Source: a virus (taxonomy: Duplodnaviria; Caudoviricetes). From it: a DNA stretch of 57,033 nt. The position numbers and the translations under genes are program-made. The first letter of the stretch is position 1; every line of letters starts with the position of its first letter. Positions 20,901 to 45,999 of the stretch are shown here, one piece after another. The notes beneath the pieces are model-generated. The model did no database searches, had not been told where the DNA came from, and saw only the letters and a list, made by a program, of their open reading frames with translations. The stretch is from positions 1 to 57,033 of IMG/VR virus record IMGVR_UViG_3300031785_000002; one strand, 5' to 3'.

Positions 20901-21052
20901 ATGCGAGAAACAGACTTCTGCGTAAGATGAGACAGGTCAAAGACAATCCAAGATTACCAGAAGAGCAAAAGGACAAAATTATCAAAAGACTTGGCGATCA
21001 GCTTCAGACTGTTATCACCAGAGCAAACAAGCTGATGAACGAAAACCTATAA
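11981..21052 (+). CDS. giant internal virion polyvalent protein (zincin metallopeptidase + effector domains + LPD38-like C-terminus)
   Basis: HEVIH at about 14087 with distal EEAVAE; G.YHI...H nuclease-like motif at about 17753; C-terminal ENAIRVATF/NVTVDFAKGG/FYNASLQG/IPMPYG motifs. Confidence 0.75.
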   Translation: MGQYYVQGSSGKYYSFNISGQSPNDAEQGKIQQILQQNNDSLIGGQPTSEEKGGFGAALSGGIDTLQLGFGSAIEGLGESTDIDFLKEYGKEVVETNKQQLADNEQYRTRIDDITGVGSALSFAGQAIVEQVPQIGSTLAGAYAGAKVGAALGPKGAIVGGIAGGVSANLPFFYGMNREAQKDVSPVVDEGIAALTAIPQSILDFIADRIVVGAIFTPKFINGGGIFSRIAKGAGAGAAAEVPTELGQQVLERLQAGKELASEEAIKEYRDVAITAGLVGGSIRGTSNLIAGDRNKKDHAEKTRQLDEDFRELQQEVHGNAALGLKKKNELAPDPSVKSEVIKQGNQVEAQQQAILKAQEAAVAGTSRLNLKRLSEEEQSTLGQYRQAIGSSQRPFTTVAELRDAGLTDRADSIQEQQLGVLNAKMEDRATVKHKFTQAQYDAAVERVKRDGVAEVANIRDAAKTEKGNKPAESVAESIRDEMIANRVIKKINNSEYVPLSEEDVAADPATELRALLSREQKKLESKRKAKEDMKERQRALLQSWDGSSPQESALEVTQKEDARIDSDIAVSEKTVKNIQRQIDSIDARSGAAGQLAKQTFTAEDSMLALRAAQEASKAKPRAEYETRKKEIAKKIESYAKKDLGLKGFKFSFEDELGGSRPGTVGQGYYDPKQKLIAIAVGIYDPNMSDADYIARLKGVMNHEVIHALRDARLFTDAEFQTLVNAANKRKVTVVRNGENVQRDYNFVDRALKLNRRRDGETDAQFTARVNEEAVAEMFRSYADGRLKVAGKPLSLFKRIINFFLGVKSAHIDTGFDSVDAIFEDIKTGKIGSRSQTDLEGRVRRRGDPVQEAVDELAIESAYTAFDADDPEDYVAMSVADRDFSEVGDVSILPDEALQNAQFIRANKQKSTDQKKIMGKLFANRDLDDGTIVSIRPNLNGFIEGDNGRLQMTQTVHEGRNYSTALGYDIFATVSNPEMLVSPAKRRDIYNGETPKGAKQDKVPMASGSGGYVNMTRGEAELIINNPDHVLSFNPGSKKREVVGHHLFVDEKGYAVEKVDGVGVHFGGKIFVKGKLVHYTSENAPQPLDGLPTSVKYIDNSEKDFSEVFSPELPMAQTDKVGVIAHKLPKELLVQGTGEKATIPVPQAFTPNNKGTVFNNIDRLKEKHPDAMSSAQAFMRMQQDAMGGEFVPLPPLNAINYANDPMRMAAKLRQLTPELKAGVDEGFSYVSQIKSLYDSGQATPEMTLKLFLWGILSRGAGPVQQEAAYIDIVEDATPLIKKAGRGFFTQDDIDTWKRTVKKYLPAGSPGRQVTMNVNAAGKLMFEMSKRSPQNNNITVGEEIHQLMLNNNVSGRAVRRAFLSLTNKAGIDNKVVSFVLLVGGKTDLLIMDRIQTSNMFDDGRFGGANLYDGIFLGTYNQKNGKPYNDGLAKLLIGPRGSLVTEFMEDGIRPNVELAYGIVGRPEDASLGRFHWESWVIEGEQVVNHSTLAAIAENNPVGHAVTEGKPFTFSSGMTYRRAPSGAVVEYPLSDGSPVFMTPTRFKAFTKRLSDKGVKDGIYPQGFKVSDATAQPWYTLPEVNRSKLDEIAKQFENARPNGSLRDGTERAGKDTVTIKRGDGRKPERTDGRDFSSVPAVEGLNTLKDFIRNNPDGYTLNSQGVLIPPGTPDSGIAVAPIKAAELIVGPDIPLEVLREYVENAKSVSEVLDQEVFLGGWLNEADNQYYLDNAILVRDKVEALYIAEAAEQEAIYDLTVPPYGQEIVTNEGIKQLQETGIYRDNIAERYRRGIDEASRLFRKSRLSNPEQGRVERARDADLLDIFSQDDAFTERLSQDDLQQLQEVQELFSSINESPRDFMEVPSNPSAPIANPVAVRARNRGETVANPYLFGVIEDGGRKYAVSLLAGQHAEGQSREERPVPTMGSFGLYHIHQRGHDKELTDNSKFPSVEEAIYATLRQWDRQGRSDGEVIVIPDGGDFNMDLRMEWKSPSHKSPPLVLSLQYIANRKNPFYTVRTFYPELSDTSYKGLMKEKKVGRFDEMSVPLAPETVRLGQQITENQHHIVYSKSYDVLSKAMKMIPLVSDQKAEDITKEFIMRFQDRMLPVGQIIDELRSKGANITDALDTYQKESLYHGITGERINTATDGLYKPTAELVSTLDVDADFDALDSEFAKYSFETTGSKKVAAIEAYLYALHAKERNEYIRTIDPSNDSGSGMDDAQADRILNWERSLNETERAKFFEIRSRVRDIIADTNKIRRDAGLIPENFEEDPAAIDEEGKEFKPPPVYSDYVPLRGILDPMGEANEDASFAGTGGASYSVRGREDKRALGRDTYPTNLLAGVFMQHQNSIIRSEKNEVAKSFLNLLKANRDGMADYAIELKTMPMKRGIVNGTVRVIPDLTASQDPSILQVKQNGNVTRIRLKDARLARALNGSVGVSPQTSNALTRSLGVLNRYLSNINTSFNPEFLVTNMFRDIQTAGVNVNQYERAGLTKEVMKNFKQAFKGVRDVVRTEGQASNITREMAEKADFDIDKISNADLFRLFQIYGGQNATNMMSDLADQVNNVNSLVGDIAESGARGQWNKIKNSFVGEKTGSLLKLLEDYNTVVENAIRVATFKALAPKIGFQKAAFAARNVTVDFAKGGEYKNAMNSAYLFYNASLQGSFALLNAATRSAKVRKIWAGLIVFGIVQDQLNAAFSEEDEDGELVYDKTPQYILEHNMIFPMFGLGPTERSELAIPMPYGLNMAVNFGRSLSRYARGAYTVGEAGSSIIGTAVDTINPLGGTNNFFNFVAPTIFDPFIDIYSNEEEFSGRPITKETSPFDPTPPPDSQLYWSTTSPSAKWIAANLNSLTGGNAIQSGIVDVSPDLLEYWVGFLTGGAGMFAQRSVDLATETIPTALTEGFEDEMVRQIPFARKVFYSVSEREDLSGFIENRNKVLQAQELLKSALEAGDPAQARSVRQRYATELRISGQVKALNNARNRLLRKMRQVKDNPRLPEEQKDKIIKRLGDQLQTVITRANKLMNENL

Positions 21053-30208: not shown

Positions 30209-31339
30209 CTATGCCGCCACCTCAATGCGTGTTGTCTCACCAAAAGGTGCGTCACTACACTGTGGGTCTGTTGATACCCACAGCACAGGATAGTCGGGCG
30301 TGTTGTCTGGAAAATCCCAGATACCCATGTCTGTCAGGTAGACCATGTTGTCTACTGGTAAATCATTCTCGCGAATGTATCTGAAGACAGGCTCTACCCT
30401 AGTGCCGCCCCTGCCATTGCACTCAATAGTGTCGATGATATCGCCCTGTTCATAGCGAACAACAGACTTGATATCAGCGTCACAAGTGATGACAGTGACA
30501 GACCGTGGCTTGTGGTCATCGGTGATATTGTTCAACTCGCCAAGGAACTGCTGTAACTCAGCGGTGCTGACAGACCCCGATGTATCAACAGCAACTACGA
30601 CATCACCCACACCAATCTTGTCAATGCTGGGCGTGTATATGCCCTGCGTATACCAGACTTTTTTGTTGGGCTTGCGAAACGTGTAGTCATCAGGCTGGTC
30701 ACCGCCAATGAAGCGATTGAACACGTCACGCCAATCAACCTTAGAGCGCCGCATTTGCTCGACTAACTCAGCGATAGCGGCTGGCAGTTTACCCATACCC
30801 TTGGCACTGGCGGCGGCAAGCATAACCCTTTGGTCAATGGTAGCCTCTACCTGACTGGCCTGAGACTTAGACAACTTCTCACCGTCATCACCCAAGCAAT
30901 CCCTCACATCACCCCATGGGCATGGTGTGGGTTGCTCAGGCTGTTCTGCAGCCAGTTGGTCATAGATGCGCTCTGCCGTCATACCCTTGAACTGCGGGTC
31001 AAACAGACCACCTTCTGGCAACTCAAAGTTACCATCCAACAGTATGTGATTGATAGCGTGGTCACAGGCAATGTTCCAGCGCTCAGGGTCACGTTCACCG
31101 CGCCGTAACATATGCTTGAATGCAACGTGCAAAACCTCATGGGCAACAACGCCGATGATTTCTTTGTCGGTGTGCTGGTCAACAAAGTCACCGTTCCATT
31201 TGATGAAGCGACCGTCAGTACACATAGTCGGCACACTGTCATCACGGTGAATATTGAGGCCAAGTGCAAGTGAGCCAAAGAATGGATTGTCTAGCACAAG
31301 GCGTGTTCTGGCTCTCGCCATTTTGGTATCTGCGTCCAT
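30209..31339 (-). CDS. DUF2201-type metallopeptidase + vWA domain protein
   Basis: PFFG, T.CTDG, HEVLH, WNIACD..IN; MIDAS DTSGS and GRGGT, YLTD. Confidence 0.9.
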   Translation of the reverse strand: MDADTKMARARTRLVLDNPFFGSLALGLNIHRDDSVPTMCTDGRFIKWNGDFVDQHTDKEIIGVVAHEVLHVAFKHMLRRGERDPERWNIACDHAINHILLDGNFELPEGGLFDPQFKGMTAERIYDQLAAEQPEQPTPCPWGDVRDCLGDDGEKLSKSQASQVEATIDQRVMLAAASAKGMGKLPAAIAELVEQMRRSKVDWRDVFNRFIGGDQPDDYTFRKPNKKVWYTQGIYTPSIDKIGVGDVVVAVDTSGSVSTAELQQFLGELNNITDDHKPRSVTVITCDADIKSVVRYEQGDIIDTIECNGRGGTRVEPVFRYIRENDLPVDNMVYLTDMGIWDFPDNTPDYPVLWVSTDPQCSDAPFGETTRIEVAA

Positions 31340-31404: not shown

Positions 31405-32418
31405 TTAGAGCATCAACTCTTTGCCATGCGACAACAGGAACTGGCGAAACGCCTGTGTCTGTTTGATGGCAGGGTTGCGGTTGTATGCGTCTTTGACAGC
31501 GAACACCGCGAACTCTTTGTGCGGTAGGCGTGTCAGGTATTTAATGACGTTGCCAATGTTCTTGTCATTAGCCTTGTGAGCCAAGGCGGCAGACACTGCA
31601 TAACATACAGCAGGGTCTTCACTGATAGCCGCACCGTCAGGGTCAGCAATCACTGCGTCAATGTCAGGGCAAGTATCGTGTATCCCCTTGTACCCCATGA
31701 ACTCAGCGCAAGCGCCACGTCCAACCTGACCAGCGACAGCCTCTTGTTCGTTCATTGCATCCAGACCCCATTTCATCATGGTGTCCACACGCTCCCATGA
31801 GCGAGGTGATGGGCAGGAATTGGCATCACGGTCAAACTTGTGCAGCAACTCTGGGCGAAAGCGCAGGAAGCCAGTGACCAACGGTGATACGCCAACACTG
31901 TTCATATAAGCAACAGTGTCCTCTAGGTCAGCCTCGACCTCGACAAACAACAGCCTGTCTTTGAGGTGGCTTGGCATATTGTTAGTGCCAGCCCTGTCAC
32001 TGGTACGGTTGCCAGCGCATACGATTGACCAGCCGTCAGGCAAACGATGCTCACCGATACGGCGCTCATTGACCAACTGTGCGGCAATGTTCTGATTAGC
32101 TACAGGCGCTTGCGGCAACTCATCTAAAAACAGTATGCCCTCGCCATCGGCTGGCATCCAGTCAGGCCGTAGTCGCTTCATACTGTCACCGTCAGCGACA
32201 AGCCAGCCAGCCAACTCGCCAGCATCATATTGGGCAAGTGACAGAATGTTGAGGCCAACCTCGCGCTCATTAGCGATAGTCTGAACGACTGAAGTTTTAC
32301 CCAGACCAGCACCACCGACAAGGTAGGCGATAGGGCGTTGGGCATCACGTCCATTGACGTGCTGAAGTTGGCTGTCGATTGAAGCCTCGACAATAGCTTT
32401 TGCTTGTGAAATACGCAT
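31405..32418 (-). CDS. MoxR/dynein-related AAA+ ATPase
   Basis: GGAGLGKT, LFLDE, AGNR..DRAG, PRSW. Confidence 0.9.
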   Translation of the reverse strand: MRISQAKAIVEASIDSQLQHVNGRDAQRPIAYLVGGAGLGKTSVVQTIANEREVGLNILSLAQYDAGELAGWLVADGDSMKRLRPDWMPADGEGILFLDELPQAPVANQNIAAQLVNERRIGEHRLPDGWSIVCAGNRTSDRAGTNNMPSHLKDRLLFVEVEADLEDTVAYMNSVGVSPLVTGFLRFRPELLHKFDRDANSCPSPRSWERVDTMMKWGLDAMNEQEAVAGQVGRGACAEFMGYKGIHDTCPDIDAVIADPDGAAISEDPAVCYAVSAALAHKANDKNIGNVIKYLTRLPHKEFAVFAVKDAYNRNPAIKQTQAFRQFLLSHGKELML

Positions 32419-32465
32419 AATAAAACTCCCGATGCGTTGTTGAAAAAAGGGGGGGGTAGGCCGCA

Positions 32466-33149
32466 CTAAGCGGCCTGACCTTCAAGTTGGGCAGTCATCT
32501 CATTGACTGCATCATTCTCAGCCTGAGCCTTGTCTGCCGCCTCTTGTGCGGCGGCTTCAGCCTCACGCCTTACACGCAGTGCATCTTCAAGAGCATTCTT
32601 GAACTCTTCAAGTTGGGCTTCATCAAATTCATTGGTCTTTTTACCATCTGCGTTTGTCTTCACCAGACCGCCAATGTATGCTTTGCCAGTCTTTGACGGC
32701 TTACCGACAATTTGCTGAACCAGCTTTTGTATTTTGGTCTGCTTTTTCTGACCGCCAACCAGCTTAATCAGCTTGGCTTCTGATGTAATGCCAGCGCCAG
32801 CAAAAACTTCTGCCACCATTTCTGGGGTGACATTGTTGCCGCCAATCTCCAATTCACGTCTAGCGCCGACTGCATTCTTGTGCATTTTTTCAGCCATGCT
32901 GTCAGTAAGGCCAACGTAGTTGGTCAGCATTTCTTTTACACCCTTTGATATGGTGGTTGGCAGATGACCCTTGGCGGTAAGTTTGTGATGGGCAATGCCA
33001 GCAATTAACTGACAATAGCTGTCCATCTTCAGCGCTTGGCGCTGTTCGTTTATACCCTTTGCCTCACCAGTAAGGGCTTCGTTTTGCATTTCGTTGCTTG
33101 CCATTGCGTCAAGAACGGTATCGGAAACAGTTACGATTTGATTAGTCAT
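32466..33149 (-). CDS. hypothetical early protein
   Basis: GGAG RBS before ATG 33149; directly downstream of hammerhead; stop codon in GGCCGC hairpin. Confidence 0.65.
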   Translation of the reverse strand: MTNQIVTVSDTVLDAMASNEMQNEALTGEAKGINEQRQALKMDSYCQLIAGIAHHKLTAKGHLPTTISKGVKEMLTNYVGLTDSMAEKMHKNAVGARRELEIGGNNVTPEMVAEVFAGAGITSEAKLIKLVGGQKKQTKIQKLVQQIVGKPSKTGKAYIGGLVKTNADGKKTNEFDEAQLEEFKNALEDALRVRREAEAAAQEAADKAQAENDAVNEMTAQLEGQAA

Positions 33150-33181
33150 TTGGTACTCCAAAAGATTGTTGATAAAAAGTA

Positions 33182-33248
33182 GCAGGACGCTACGACACCG
33201 CAGGGCGCGGTGTTTCGGGCGTGTCCTACGCGCCCATCATCAGGTAGC
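33182..33248 (-). ncRNA. type I hammerhead ribozyme with loop II pseudoknot
   Basis: GCUAC-CUGAUGA-U-GGGCG-cguaggaca-CGCCC-GAAA-CACCGC-gcccu-GCGGUG-UC/GUAGC-GUCCUGC; all three stems and core present. Confidence 0.9.
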
Positions 33249-33256
33249 TTTAAAAA

Positions 33257-33544
33257 TCAGTCATCTGGAAACTCCTTATCCAAGTGATTGATAATATCGT
33301 TTGGCAGATAATTACGGGCATCGTCATAGCCGATTGAAAGGTCATCTCCTGCATAGACAGACTTGCCGTCCTTTTTGATGTCAAAGATCATGTAATTGTG
33401 ACAGCCCCAGCTATCCGTCTCGACCTCATAGCCAAGGCTCTCAATAGCATCCACAACTAAATGTGTGCCGTTCCAACCATCCCCATCATCAAAGCCAAAC
33501 TTGTCGAACGCCTCTTGCCACGTCCATTCTACAATCGTTTTCAT
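33257..33544 (-). CDS. acidic hypothetical early protein
   Basis: GGAG RBS; D/E-rich 95 aa. Confidence 0.65.
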   Translation of the reverse strand: MKTIVEWTWQEAFDKFGFDDGDGWNGTHLVVDAIESLGYEVETDSWGCHNYMIFDIKKDGKSVYAGDDLSIGYDDARNYLPNDIINHLDKEFPDD

Positions 33545-33546
33545 CT

Positions 33547-33747
33547 TTATATCTCCACTTGGCCGTAGCGTTCATCATCATACGATTGTGACATTGCCTC
33601 AAGTACGGCAGGGTCAAGCATATAAGACTTCATTACTGGCTTGTTGCCATCAGCCTTTAACTTGTCCATGACCTGTACGGCCTGAGATAAAACCAGCCCA
33701 ACATATGTCAGGCCGCCATTTACATAGATGTGGAAGTATTCAGTCAT
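33547..33747 (-). CDS. hypothetical early protein
   Basis: Coupled TAATG junction. Confidence 0.55.
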   Translation of the reverse strand: MTEYFHIYVNGGLTYVGLVLSQAVQVMDKLKADGNKPVMKSYMLDPAVLEAMSQSYDDERYGQVEI

Positions 33748-35527: not shown

Positions 35528-36160
35528 CTATTTTTCGTAAAAGTACTCTTCTGTATCCCCTAGCCTGTACTTATTGCCAGATTCTACCTGATAATATTCG
35601 GTAGATACCTTGAAATCGGGCATTGATGGGTTCTCTGGCGTTAGGGAGTTGTCATATACCCGCATTCTGTTGTTCGGGTACAGTGCATATTGCCCGTTCT
35701 CTAGCTCTATCAGGTTAAATGACTTGTGTTCCTCTGGAATTTCGGAGGTTGAGTAGTCTATTTCGTCTGCCTGTGCGTGATAATTGTCTAACGTACAGAT
35801 ATATGTGCCGTAAAAGTTGCCCTCATCGCGTGTTCGGACCTCAAAATCCATAGAACCGATAAATTGCTTGTAAATAGACGTGACACCATAGTCCATACAG
35901 TTCCAGAATTGCAGATTGGGTAGGGACAGGTCGGGTTCTGGCGTTTTAGGCTCTGACACAAAGGCGCTAATCGGTAGTTTGTCGTACAGAGCGCCGTAAT
36001 GAGGTAGGTAAGTCTCAAAGTAAAAGGCTCTGCCGGGAATGGACTTCGCTGTTACCCAATGCCCCTCAACAAATTCACCATGTCCCTCTTGATGGTCCAT
36101 GAGATATTCTTTGCGAACATAGACTTTAGCGTTTGGAATATTGGTCAGTAGTGTTGACAT
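35528..36160 (-). CDS. conserved marine phage hypothetical protein
   Basis: VYVRKEYL.D...GHGEF...SIPGRAFYFE...YDKLPISAF...QFWNC. Confidence 0.7.
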   Translation of the reverse strand: MSTLLTNIPNAKVYVRKEYLMDHQEGHGEFVEGHWVTAKSIPGRAFYFETYLPHYGALYDKLPISAFVSEPKTPEPDLSLPNLQFWNCMDYGVTSIYKQFIGSMDFEVRTRDEGNFYGTYICTLDNYHAQADEIDYSTSEIPEEHKSFNLIELENGQYALYPNNRMRVYDNSLTPENPSMPDFKVSTEYYQVESGNKYRLGDTEEYFYEK

Positions 36161-36374
36161 TTGTAAATTCCATATCGTCTGGGTGTACACAGCTTGTTAG
36201 CTTAAATATCATGGGAACTTGTATCATTCTGAATACATCTATCGAATCTTCAATCATTTCCACAATACGAGTCTTGCATTCTTCCTCAGTATCATAAGGA
36301 CCACGATCATCACTTATGAGTATGCAGTCAGCGGGGTTTGCTATATGACAAGCTACAATGAAGGCTTTAAACAT
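36126..36374 (-). CDS. hypothetical protein
   Basis: MFKA.IVAC...C...D.RGPY.T.EEC..R motif; AGGAG RBS. Confidence 0.6.
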   Translation of the reverse strand: MFKAFIVACHIANPADCILISDDRGPYDTEEECKTRIVEMIEDSIDVFRMIQVPMIFKLTSCVHPDDMEFTNVNTTDQYSKR

Positions 36375-44488: not shown

Positions 44489-45394
44489 ATGGCTATAACA
44501 CGCGCACAACTCCTGAAGGAACTGTTACCGGGTCTTAACGCACTGTTCGGTTTGGAATACGAAAAGTATGAAAATGAACACGCAGAAATCTATGAAACTG
44601 AAACATCAGAGCGTAGCTTCGAGGAAGAAGTAAAGCTGTCTGGTTTCGGAGCCGCTCCCGTAAAACCGGAGGGGTCAGCGATTTCGTTTGACAGCGCTCA
44701 GGAATCCTTCACAGCCCGTTACAACCACGAAACTGTGGCAATGGGCTTTTCTGTAACTGAAGAAGCAATGGAAGATAATTTGTATGATGCGCTTTCAGCA
44801 CGTTATACAAAGTCTCTTGCCCGTGCGATGGCATATACCAAGCAGGTAAAAGCCGCCGCGCTGCTAAACAATGGTTTCACCACCTTTCAATCAGGTGATG
44901 GGGTAACATTGTTTAATGCTTCTCACCCGACTGTACAGGGTGGAACTAACTCAAATCGTCCAAGCACAAATGCTGACTTGAACGAGACTTCTTTGGAAGA
45001 AGCAGTTATTAATATTGCCGCATTCGTTGATGAGCGTGGCCTGTTGATTGCCGCTCGTCCACGTAAGTTGGTTATTCCACCAGCATTGATGTTTGTTGCA
45101 ACTCGTCTACTACAGACAGATTTGCGTGTCGGCACAGCCGATAACGACATCAACGCTATTCGGTCAAACGGTTCGATTCCAGAAGGATTCCGTGTCAATC
45201 ACTACCTGACTGACAACGATGCGTTCTTCCTGACAACCGATGTGCCGAACGGCATGAAGCATTTTGTCCGTACACCAATGTCAACATCTATGGATGGTGA
45301 CTTTGACACAGGCAATGTTCGCTACAAGGCCCGTGAGCGTTACAGCTTCGGTGTGTCCGACCCATTAGGCATTTATGGCTCACCCGGAGCGTAA
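44489..45394 (+). CDS. major capsid protein
   Basis: MAITRAQLLKELLPGLNALFGLEY...GDFDTGNVRYKARERYSFG. Confidence 0.9.
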   Translation: MAITRAQLLKELLPGLNALFGLEYEKYENEHAEIYETETSERSFEEEVKLSGFGAAPVKPEGSAISFDSAQESFTARYNHETVAMGFSVTEEAMEDNLYDALSARYTKSLARAMAYTKQVKAAALLNNGFTTFQSGDGVTLFNASHPTVQGGTNSNRPSTNADLNETSLEEAVINIAAFVDERGLLIAARPRKLVIPPALMFVATRLLQTDLRVGTADNDINAIRSNGSIPEGFRVNHYLTDNDAFFLTTDVPNGMKHFVRTPMSTSMDGDFDTGNVRYKARERYSFGVSDPLGIYGSPGA

Positions 45395-45466: not shown

Positions 45467-45511
45467 CCTTGACAGTCGCATACTGCGGCTGACACTAGCC
45501 AAGACAAGGAG
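45467..45511 (+). promoter_or_regulatory. structured 5' leader masking the RBS
   Basis: TATAAT at 45452; CCTTG/CAAGG stem overlapping AAGGAG; inner CAGTCGC/GCGGCTG hairpin. Confidence 0.45.
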
Positions 45512-45516
45512 TTCCC

Positions 45517-45999
45517 ATGGCTAATACTACTTTTAGCGGTCCCGTCCGCTCAGAAAACGGTTTCAAGAATGTTATTAAAAGCGCGACAACTGGTGACCTT
45601 ACCAGTGAGATGACACTTTCTGTTTACACTGCTACTGTAACAGTTGCCAGTGGTGCTACTACAGGAAAAGAATCTGCTATTGGCATTCCATCAAACTTTA
45701 TTCCTCTGGCTGTTATGGTCGCCGTTACAGGCGCGGCGTCTAACAACGTAAACCTAGTTGATATCGGCACAGACGCAGACACAGATGGATTTGTTGACGG
45801 CATTGCCGCCGCAGTAAACTCAACTGGTTTCAAAGGCTTTTTCCCATGTAATGGTGTGTTGGGTATGTCTGGCGGCACAACAACAGCCGCTACAGAAACA
45901 GCAGATGAGGTTGAGATTGTTCTGTCCGGTGACCCCGGAGCAGACACAACTGTAGTTATGAAGTTTATGGGTATTTCTAGCTCATCAGACGCTTCGTAG
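45517..45999 (+). CDS. minor capsid/decoration protein
   Basis: MANTTFSGPVRSENGF N-terminus. Confidence 0.55.
   Translation: MANTTFSGPVRSENGFKNVIKSATTGDLTSEMTLSVYTATVTVASGATTGKESAIGIPSNFIPLAVMVAVTGAASNNVNLVDIGTDADTDGFVDGIAAAVNSTGFKGFFPCNGVLGMSGGTTTAATETADEVEIVLSGDPGADTTVVMKFMGISSSSDAS

Follow-up and report, generated by a model that had tools for sequence, protein, structure and literature searches.

The minus strand of the window (the whole 57-kb stretch of marine phage DNA analyzed here, from a viral record rated 96% complete) contains a single copy of a complete type I hammerhead at positions 33248 to 33179, a member of a family that numbers 85 distinct copies across marine viral and metagenome contigs. 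We consider it probable, at roughly 60%, that this element is a functional self-cleaving ribozyme in a polycistronic early-gene transcript, that it processes the mRNA in an insulator-like manner, and that its 3' product refolds into a 5'-terminal hairpin. This reading is built on sequence comparison, and from it we infer cleavage, the order of events, and the effects on mRNA stability and translation.

The elements of the ribozyme and the surrounding genes are listed in Table 1. Along the strand, the 5' arm of stem I is followed by the core, the stem II hairpin, GAAA, the stem III hairpin, the cleavage site, and the 3' arm of stem I, which is the order of a type I hammerhead. Stem I is open and stems II and III are closed by loops, a topology that also assigns the ribozyme to type I. 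The residue at the site (H17, non-G) is C33194, preceded by U33195. A preliminary description of this DNA had placed a type I hammerhead at 33179 to 33248, and each element and coordinate that it named is correct on the minus strand; compensatory changes in relatives back its hammerhead, its pseudoknot, and its competing hairpin. Its GUC cleavage position between 33194 and 33193 is where the hammerhead consensus puts the predicted site, and the distance from the cut to ATG 33149, given as about 45 nt, was counted as 44 nt.

Table 1. Features of the hammerhead element and its neighboring genes in the window
Feature	Position	Strand	Basis or remarks
Upstream 95-aa ORF	33257..33544	minus	TGA stop at 33259-33257, 8 nt ahead of stem I
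Stem I	GCUAC 33248-33244 / GUAGC 33193-33189	minus	Sequence; 5 bp
Core CUGAUGA (C3-A9)	33243-33237	minus	Sequence
Extra U at the A9/stem II junction	33236	minus	Sequence
Stem II	GGGCG 33235-33231 / CGCCC 33221-33217	minus	5 bp; 9-nt loop II at 33230-33222
Pseudoknot strand in loop II, GUAGGAC	33229-33223	minus	Complementary to 33188-33182
Core GAAA (G12, A13, A14, A15.1)	33216-33213	minus	Sequence
Stem III	ACACCGC 33213-33207 / GCGGUGU 33201-33195	minus	7 bp including A15.1-U16.1; loop GCCCU
Predicted cleavage site, GUC triplet	C17 33194 / G1.1 33193	minus	Position from the hammerhead consensus
Stem I 3' strand GUAGC, doubling as 5' arm of the alternative hairpin	33193-33189	minus	Sequence
Pseudoknot tail GUCCUGC	33188-33182	minus	First five bases form the loop of the alternative hairpin
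Downstream repeat GCUAC, 3' arm of the alternative hairpin	33183-33179	minus	Sequence
U5 run after the hairpin	33178-33174	minus	Sequence
A/U-rich leader with Shine-Dalgarno GGAG at 33159-33156	33178-33150	minus	Sequence
Downstream 227-aa gene	32466..33149	minus	ATG 33149, 44 nt after the cut
MoxR-like ATPase gene	31405-32466	minus	After the 227-aa gene
DUF2201 metallopeptidase/VWA gene	30209-31339	minus	After the MoxR-like ATPase gene

The ORF upstream of the element has no match in Pfam or PHROG, and no relative of the 227-aa protein encoded downstream was found in Pfam, PHROG, PDB, or among GenBank phages. An exonuclease and a Sak-like annealing protein are encoded further downstream in the same minus-strand block, with structural genes on the opposite strand, and the genes of the block look like early or replication genes. 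Across the family, a start codon with a Shine-Dalgarno sequence ahead of it follows the predicted cut by 35 to 47 nt in 84 of the 85 copies, with a median of 42 nt.

Our own hammerhead descriptor, consisting of the core, an optional extra nucleotide, and three stems of at least 4 bp each, matched the window once, at this site, and matched none of 100 dinucleotide-preserving shuffles, which makes it unlikely that the motif arose by chance. A covariance model of the family, run on the window with filters off, also found one copy, and its next-best match had an E value of 2.2. The hammerhead families of Rfam 15 (RF00163, RF00008, RF02276, RF02275, RF02277, and RF03152) gave no match in the window at the gathering score, none on positions 33000 to 33450 at E values up to 10, and none in the relatives L041, L056, L063, and L075 at E values up to 1. 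The sole Rfam match in the window is Mu-gpT-DE. Since no Rfam hammerhead matched, membership in the class rests on the defining features and on the comparative evidence. The core and the helices are shared with Hammerhead_1 (RF00163), Hammerhead_3 (RF00008), and Hammerhead_II (RF02276), but the family escapes the Rfam 15 models and marks a gap in them.

Relatives were collected by four routes: 5 loci came from protein relatives of the downstream gene, 19 and 23 from two pattern scans of viral contigs, 60 from a protein-profile search that was independent of the RNA, and 71, some of which have marine or TARA record names, from a single pattern scan of metagenomes. Of the 55 new loci derived from the protein, 30 were hit by a covariance model trained on 30 distinct copies, with 45 matches that all lie on the gene strand. 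The model also made 59 matches across 63 sources, and in the metagenome set it hit 60 of the 71 loci with a total of 81 matches. When duplicates and three incomplete rows were dropped, 86 distinct copies were left, of which 85 constitute the family; the copy excluded, L010, is a different type I hammerhead that lacks the pseudoknot and the hairpin. L018 was also rejected, being a chance pattern match that the covariance model did not find. Many of the copies are related or recombinant, and the cells of the alignments are thus not independent events. Beyond these contigs, the region from 32900 to 33600 has no DNA match among GenBank phages, and a blastn search with the ribozyme against 50,697 GenBank phage records returned only a chance match in the tape-measure gene of a Mycobacterium phage. 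The covariance model had no match in Roseobacter phage CRP-7, which is the nearest cultured phage by the ATPase (42% identity). In prokaryote genome contigs, one family pattern hit six places, none confirmed by the model, an absence that extends only to sequences with the part of stem I that the pattern fixes.

The copies were aligned in two sets, A1 with 30 viral-contig copies and A5 with 69 distinct metagenome rows. In A1, 97.9% of the cells are paired and 15 of 24 pairs show changes on both sides; the corresponding values for A5 are 96.8% and 16 of 24, and in neither alignment did any of 500 shuffles reach the score. The covarying pairs are found in stem I (2 of 5 pairs in A1 and 5 of 5 in A5), stem II (4 of 5 in both), the pseudoknot (4 of 7 and 2 of 7), and stem III (5 of 7 in both). 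As a control, shifting the partners by 1 to 3 columns brings pairing down to 24 to 52%. At the level of aligned sequences, these patterns show that all three stems and the pseudoknot are selectively maintained. In one copy, L159, the stem I pair beside the cut is a C.A mismatch, and the hairpin is intact.

The catalytic core is strictly conserved. CUGANGA is present in all 85 distinct copies, and the sole variable position is N7 (U in 61 copies, C in 23, and A in 1), which is the only position of the hammerhead core known to be free. GAAA is invariant in A1, and the triplet at the site is GUC in 76 of the family copies, UUC in 8, and GUA in 1. The column of the extra U contains U in 68 rows and G in 10, and the residue is absent in 15, so an additional nucleotide between A9 and stem II appears to be tolerated and dispensable in the relatives. 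The viroid literature describes natural hammerheads that have an additional residue in this position.

The pseudoknot between the loop II strand and the tail consists of six Watson-Crick pairs and one U.G pair in the window. Between 92% and 93% of its cells are paired in A1 and A5, and the helix is 6 to 7 bp long in 41 of 48 copies. The preliminary description had counted 7 bp, which holds for the window; among the relatives, however, 6 bp are conserved, and the seventh pair is a standard one in about half of the sequences (16 of 30 in A1 and 40 of 67 in A5). The helix has more than the 4 Watson-Crick base pairs between the sides of stem I and stem II that mark the pseudoknot-stabilized hammerheads of Perreault et al. 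(2011). A control in which pseudoknot strands were swapped between copies separates native from swapped pairs only modestly (means of 5.4 and 4.0 bp), and the pseudoknot claim is therefore based on the covariation in A1 and A5.

The same 3' strand of stem I has a second potential partner. In the sequence GUAGC-GUCCU-GCUAC at 33193 to 33179, GUAGC can form stem I with the upstream arm or, with the downstream arm, a hairpin at the very start of the predicted 3' product. A hairpin of this kind with at least 4 bp, beginning at position +1 of this product (+2 in one copy), is possible in all 85 copies. In A5, 99.1% of the hairpin cells are paired and 4 of 5 pairs show changes on both sides; A1 has a single variable pair in the hairpin. 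The 3' strand of stem I falls into 10 sequence classes, and the downstream arm matches it in every one. The arm GUAGC is accompanied by GCUAC, GCUAU, or GUUAC, AUAGC by GCUAU, GCAGC by GCUGU, GUGAC by GUCAC, and GCGGUA by UACCGU; in the low-GC phage L014, the arms GUAG, GUGA, and GUGG are accompanied by CUAC, UCAC, and CCAC. In one copy, L158:1698, the last hairpin pair is lost. Exchanging arms between copies and counting base pairs is a weak control, as G.U pairs are tolerated: a hairpin of at least 4 bp still forms in 546 of 908 swaps, and in 41 of 90 with one representative per class. With energies, native hairpins have a mean of -5.4 kcal/mol and between-class swaps one of -1.4 kcal/mol, and 3 of 90 swaps are equally stable. 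The hairpin that the preliminary description had proposed as a competitor of stem I is supported as a structure by this tracking of the stem I 3' strand. Since the pseudoknot tail supplies the hairpin loop, the hairpin and the active fold are mutually exclusive, and the comparison among classes shows selection on the predicted alternative hairpin as a second helix of this exclusive kind. Covariation fits a hairpin formed before or after cleavage alike; we infer that it forms after cleavage.

The main rival reading, which we judge unlikely, takes the same hairpin as an OFF state that precedes cleavage. The ribozyme would be ON when the 3' strand of stem I is paired to the 5' strand and OFF when it is paired to the downstream repeat. 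Perhaps a ribosome that terminates at an abutting stop codon masks the 5' strand, and cleavage then reports, or is set by, translation of the upstream gene. The covariation of the hairpin fits this reading equally well. Without the pseudoknot, the two secondary structures are nearly isoenergetic (-25.4 versus -26.4 kcal/mol), and the plain minimum-free-energy fold contains stems II and III and the hairpin in place of stem I. This choice is expected, as the program is blind to pseudoknots. Nearest-neighbor energies assign -12.3 kcal/mol to the 7-bp pseudoknot duplex and -4.8 to -6.0 kcal/mol to the hairpin. With the 5' strand of stem I made first and the pseudoknot adding its stability, the ON fold should win during transcription. 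By these energies, the active fold should prevail before cleavage, and the hairpin can trap the product once stem I opens; the pseudoknot duplex is the stronger of the two, so the hairpin alone would not force product release. An upstream ORF of 40 codons or more could be identified for 60 copies, and in 52 of these its stop codon is -1 to +2 nt away from stem I, as a coupling to translation would have it. However, the stop codon in the window is 8 nt away, tight gene packing could explain the closeness in the other copies, and no element that would bind a ligand or a protein is apparent.

The two GCUAC copies could also be a feature of the DNA: a small mobile cassette with the ribozyme might have left them as a target-site duplication or as a recombination joint. 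The two arms flank about 65 nt as direct repeats, and the genes upstream of the cassette differ between relatives, with the cassette and the leader remaining constant. In the comparison with L001, homology starts exactly at the 5' edge of the ribozyme, and the DNA downstream is about 98% identical. Within the ribozyme, the two sequences differ by three compensated pairs in stem II, two compensated pairs in the pseudoknot, and two loop changes. The comparison with L001 thus indicates that the cassette is a module boundary at which helices are kept and sequences are exchanged. As an explanation of the repeats themselves, an origin in the DNA is very unlikely. The downstream arm deviates from the 5' arm only where pairing with the 3' strand survives, as in the class with the 5' arm GCUGC, whose downstream arm is GCUGU. 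G.U wobbles are confined to the hairpin arm (18 of 67 cells at the closing pair), and the 5' arm stays Watson-Crick, which argues for an RNA helix and against a direct repeat at the DNA level. In addition, covariation of an internal strand with both copies is not what a duplication would produce. An origin as a mobile cassette and a role in the RNA are compatible.

Many of the contigs hold 2 to 4 copies about 0.6 to 1.3 kb apart, some of which share stem I and have compatible pseudoknots. For these relatives, paired ribozymes that flank a gene might excise its RNA and religate it to a circle or splice it, with the hairpin modulating ligation. Perreault et al. raised such a possibility, but according to their account no such products were detected (PMC3088659). 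The window has a single copy, in several contigs, L014 and L016 among them, the copies differ in stem I and pseudoknot, and the hairpin would oppose ligation, all of which leaves this explanation with a very slight chance.

The preliminary description also pointed to the U5 run after the hairpin. The run is present in the window, and a simple scan calls positions 33193 to 33179 together with TTTTT terminator-like, which could make the pair an intrinsic terminator of the upstream genes, with the hammerhead being incidental. The run is not conserved, however: at least five U residues within the next 8 nt are found in 7 of the 85 copies, and the terminator-like look of the window is therefore not a property of the family. 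The stem is only 5 to 6 bp long, the combination of a G+C-rich stem and a conserved U tract that characterizes intrinsic terminators is missing, and compensatory changes tie the hairpin to stem I of the ribozyme. The simple scan also found no promoter-like site for the 227-aa gene that follows. A terminator at this place is scarcely credible. That the motif is a decayed or chance look-alike without activity, as the missing Rfam match and the one extra nucleotide beside the core might suggest, is most improbable given the failure of all 100 shuffles, the strict conservation of the core, and the extensive compensatory change.

Other RNA devices occupy the same spot in some relatives of the downstream gene. 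In 16 of 27 scanned loci without the type I family, the Rfam type III model gave matches below threshold but clear (E values of 4e-6 to 0.06) at this position, and the stem I hairpin at these sites covaries. Inspection by eye shows a minimal type III hammerhead in L043, its stem II reduced to 1 bp and its loops joined by a pseudoknot. A GC-rich hairpin takes the place of a hammerhead in six loci, and these hairpins may be terminators. Counted together, some hammerhead lies directly 5' of the homolog of the 227-aa gene in 50 of 60 loci. In the type III copies, the 3' product opens with the stem I hairpin at +1, and the 5' product ends a few bases past a stable GC hairpin. In the type I family, the predicted 5' product ends in stem III, and the hairpin of the 3' product is supplied by the downstream repeat. 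The comparison of product ends indicates that both designs would leave hairpins at both new ends. The idea from RNAfold that type III sites capture the stem III strand in a mirror image of this arrangement was rejected, as shuffles of the upstream flank equal the pairing in 14 to 57% of cases.

The preferred reading, that of a self-cleaving ribozyme whose 3' product refolds, would proceed as follows. During transcription, stems II and III would fold and the 5-bp stem I would close, whereupon the 6 to 7 nt 3' of stem I would pair with loop II in a pseudoknot that keeps stems I and II parallel. The RNA would then cut itself after C33194. The upstream mRNA would terminate in the stem III hairpin and carry a 2',3'-cyclic phosphate, and the downstream mRNA would have G33193 as its first nucleotide, bearing a 5'-OH. 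Next, the 3' strand of stem I would switch to the repeat 10 nt downstream and form a hairpin from the first nucleotide, with the pseudoknot tail as its loop. This strand swap would undo both contacts that tie the product to the ribozyme, and we propose that it removes the 5'-OH from the active site, so that religation would be prevented and release favored. The new 5' end would be base-paired and followed by a standard A/U-rich leader of 42 to 44 nt with a free Shine-Dalgarno sequence, regardless of the gene upstream, and the element would thus act as a natural ribozyme insulator or transcript-boundary cassette. Irreversible cleavage, a paired 5' end, and a leader independent of the upstream gene are what the ligation equilibria of hammerheads and the 5'-end-dependent decay of bacterial mRNA lead one to expect.

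A competition between a transient active fold and another structure is also known from viroids and satellite RNAs, in which alternative folds switch hammerheads off. In those circular RNAs, the competing structure spans the genome as a rod or branched fold and favors ligation, whereas in the phage the competitor is a local hairpin of 5 bp within the leader of an mRNA. Type I hammerheads of RNA viruses with eukaryotic hosts have been described as having, like the one in the window, a long helix III and a position in UTRs before ORFs, with a proposed role in the expression of the downstream ORF. Those are reportedly without clear loop-loop contacts, whereas the phage element is encoded in DNA and has a strong pseudoknot.

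Among phage hammerheads, the closest known examples are in the survey of Perreault et al. (PMC3088659), which reports pseudoknots in all three hammerhead topologies and in about 40% of representatives, places several hammerheads beside genes in prophages, and proposes the processing of long phage transcripts into gene-length mRNAs. As characterized there, these ribozymes resemble that of the window in having the same core, a Watson-Crick pseudoknot in place of a loop-loop contact, and an intergenic location in phage DNA, often with several per locus. The comparison is one of text descriptions rather than alignments; these contain no mention of a competitor of stem I, and the pseudoknot ribozyme tested was of type II (PMC3088659). 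HHphage of the haloviruses HF1 and HF2 is likewise a phage hammerhead shortly before a start codon, with a mapped transcript 5' end at most 3 nt from the cleavage site. It differs in an insertion near C3/stem I, an adaptation to high salt, and a distance of 13 nt to the start codon, and its published account (PMC3088659) includes no design of pseudoknot and hairpin. Phage hammerheads with pseudoknots are thus already known, and the built-in, covarying competing hairpin looks like a new variant. Our literature search, mostly at the level of titles and abstracts, returned no description of a natural hammerhead with a conserved, covarying competitor of the substrate strand.

RiboJ is a synthetic insulator composed of the sTRSV hammerhead and a 23-nt hairpin, and it is reported to raise transcript and protein levels in Escherichia coli (PMC8794103; PMC6206723). 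As in the phage element, the ribozyme trims the upstream RNA and the hairpin gives a defined 5' end before the ribosome-binding site. The RiboJ hairpin is, as described, an engineered addition that shares no strand with the ribozyme, whereas the phage hairpin would reuse the stem I 3' strand and the pseudoknot tail and thereby exclude the active fold. The likeness is one of working principle and implies no family relationship. The insulator architecture of ribozyme, hairpin, and ribosome-binding site in a varied upstream context is present in the phage element, and the functional likeness is by analogy.

The function of genomic hammerheads in bacteria and phages has been open since their discovery in 2011 (PMC3088659; 2019 review, PMC6765202), in agreement with the preliminary description, in which phage hammerheads are said to have mostly undefined roles. 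Three different hammerhead architectures share one place upstream of one gene family. We tentatively suggest, as a proposal that may well prove too broad, that marine phages carry a natural modular ribozyme insulator in which the substrate strand and the pseudoknot tail are preset to swap after the cut, making cleavage irreversible and capping the 5'-OH mRNA, which would have a defined leader. The cassette of stop codon, ribozyme, hairpin, leader, and Shine-Dalgarno sequence would then mark module boundaries and, within one locus, be interchangeable with type III hammerheads and GC-rich hairpins. The 85 copies at a fixed distance from the start codon, together with the second selected helix, the shared place of the three architectures, and the mutants that covariation can guide, provide an unusually clear handle on the function of phage hammerheads. 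If the strand-swap model holds, a small ribozyme would have been made effectively irreversible in cis, and the element would be a natural counterpart of RiboJ and a source of compact insulator parts with varied stem I and pseudoknot sequences. The insulator reading, if true, would give phage hammerheads a concrete and testable function.

The place upstream of the gene that the type I hammerhead precedes in the window, which encodes a protein of 227 aa, is occupied in some relatives by ribozymes of another type. In these loci, type III hammerheads, and not members of the type I family, lie immediately 5' of the 227-aa gene homologs, and their RF00008 matches, all under the gathering score, have E values of 4e-6 to 0.06. 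Stem I of these ribozymes shows covariation, and each is preceded on its 5' side by a hairpin of the GGGGC-UUCG-GCCCC type. Both kinds are found at one gene in L079 and L080, with the type III hammerhead 5' and the type I ribozyme 3' of the gene. In another relative, L043, a candidate minimal type III hammerhead was recognized by eye, with a stem II of a single base pair and a 5-bp pseudoknot between loops I and II. The 3' strand of its stem III overlaps the Shine-Dalgarno sequence that belongs to the next gene, and, judging from this overlap, cleavage might free the Shine-Dalgarno sequence. Six further relatives are without a hammerhead and have at the same junction a strong GC-rich hairpin instead, with a possible role as terminator or processing hairpin.

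Coordinates of features in the window and in relative loci (L-numbers)
Feature	Location	Strand	Basis or remark
3023-aa ORF	window 11981-21052	+	single; in structural-gene block
95-aa ORF	window 33257-33544	-	extra relative to L003; between 66-aa ORF and ribozyme
66-aa ORF	window 33547-33747	-	homolog in L003
220-aa ORF	window 35528-36190	-	PHROG 3704, E 2.7e-105
Mu-gpT-DE RNA (RF03012)	window 45467-45519	+	Rfam, 59.1 bits, E 3.5e-11
Type III hammerhead	about 1140-1475 in each of L047-L049, L062, L071, L072, L077-L080, L085, L086, L088-L091		RF00008 match
Minimal type III hammerhead	L043:1440-1500		by eye
GC-rich hairpin	about 60-80 nt upstream of gene in L050-L052, L054, L055, L058

The gene content immediately upstream of the ribozyme cassette is variable. 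The homolog of the 66-aa ORF directly adjoins the ribozyme in L003 (1200-1405), and other small ORFs take the place of the 95-aa ORF in L001 and L004. On the downstream side, the Shine-Dalgarno region of the predicted 3' cleavage product (window 33165-33147, minus strand) can be folded into a small hairpin, UUUGG-AGUA-CCAAA, with its 3' end at the AUG; it is common to the closest relatives, because their leader is identical, and is missing from other relatives.

Elsewhere in the window, the Mu-gpT-DE RNA, the sole Rfam match at the gathering score, has the major head gene (44489-45394) on its 5' side and is followed by an ORF that starts at 45517. The PHROG matched by the 220-aa ORF is labeled "ferredoxin" and is categorized as a moron or auxiliary metabolic gene.

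Several ribozymes can also occur in one contig. In a low-GC phage contig (L014:800-3700, minus strand), a 3-kb stretch holds four type I hammerheads that are built like the one in the window but each have their own stem I sequence. The same stretch contains two pistol ribozymes, which score 69 and 60 bits, and a weak match to a type III/RAGATH-1 hammerhead. Four type I family copies lie within 2.8 kb in L016 (1128-3890, minus strand), which is the same contig as L117, and each differs in its stem I and pseudoknot sequence. In multicopy genomes, there appears to be a tendency for the ribozyme copies to differ in sequence, and such differences could limit cross-pairing or recombination among the copies in one genome.
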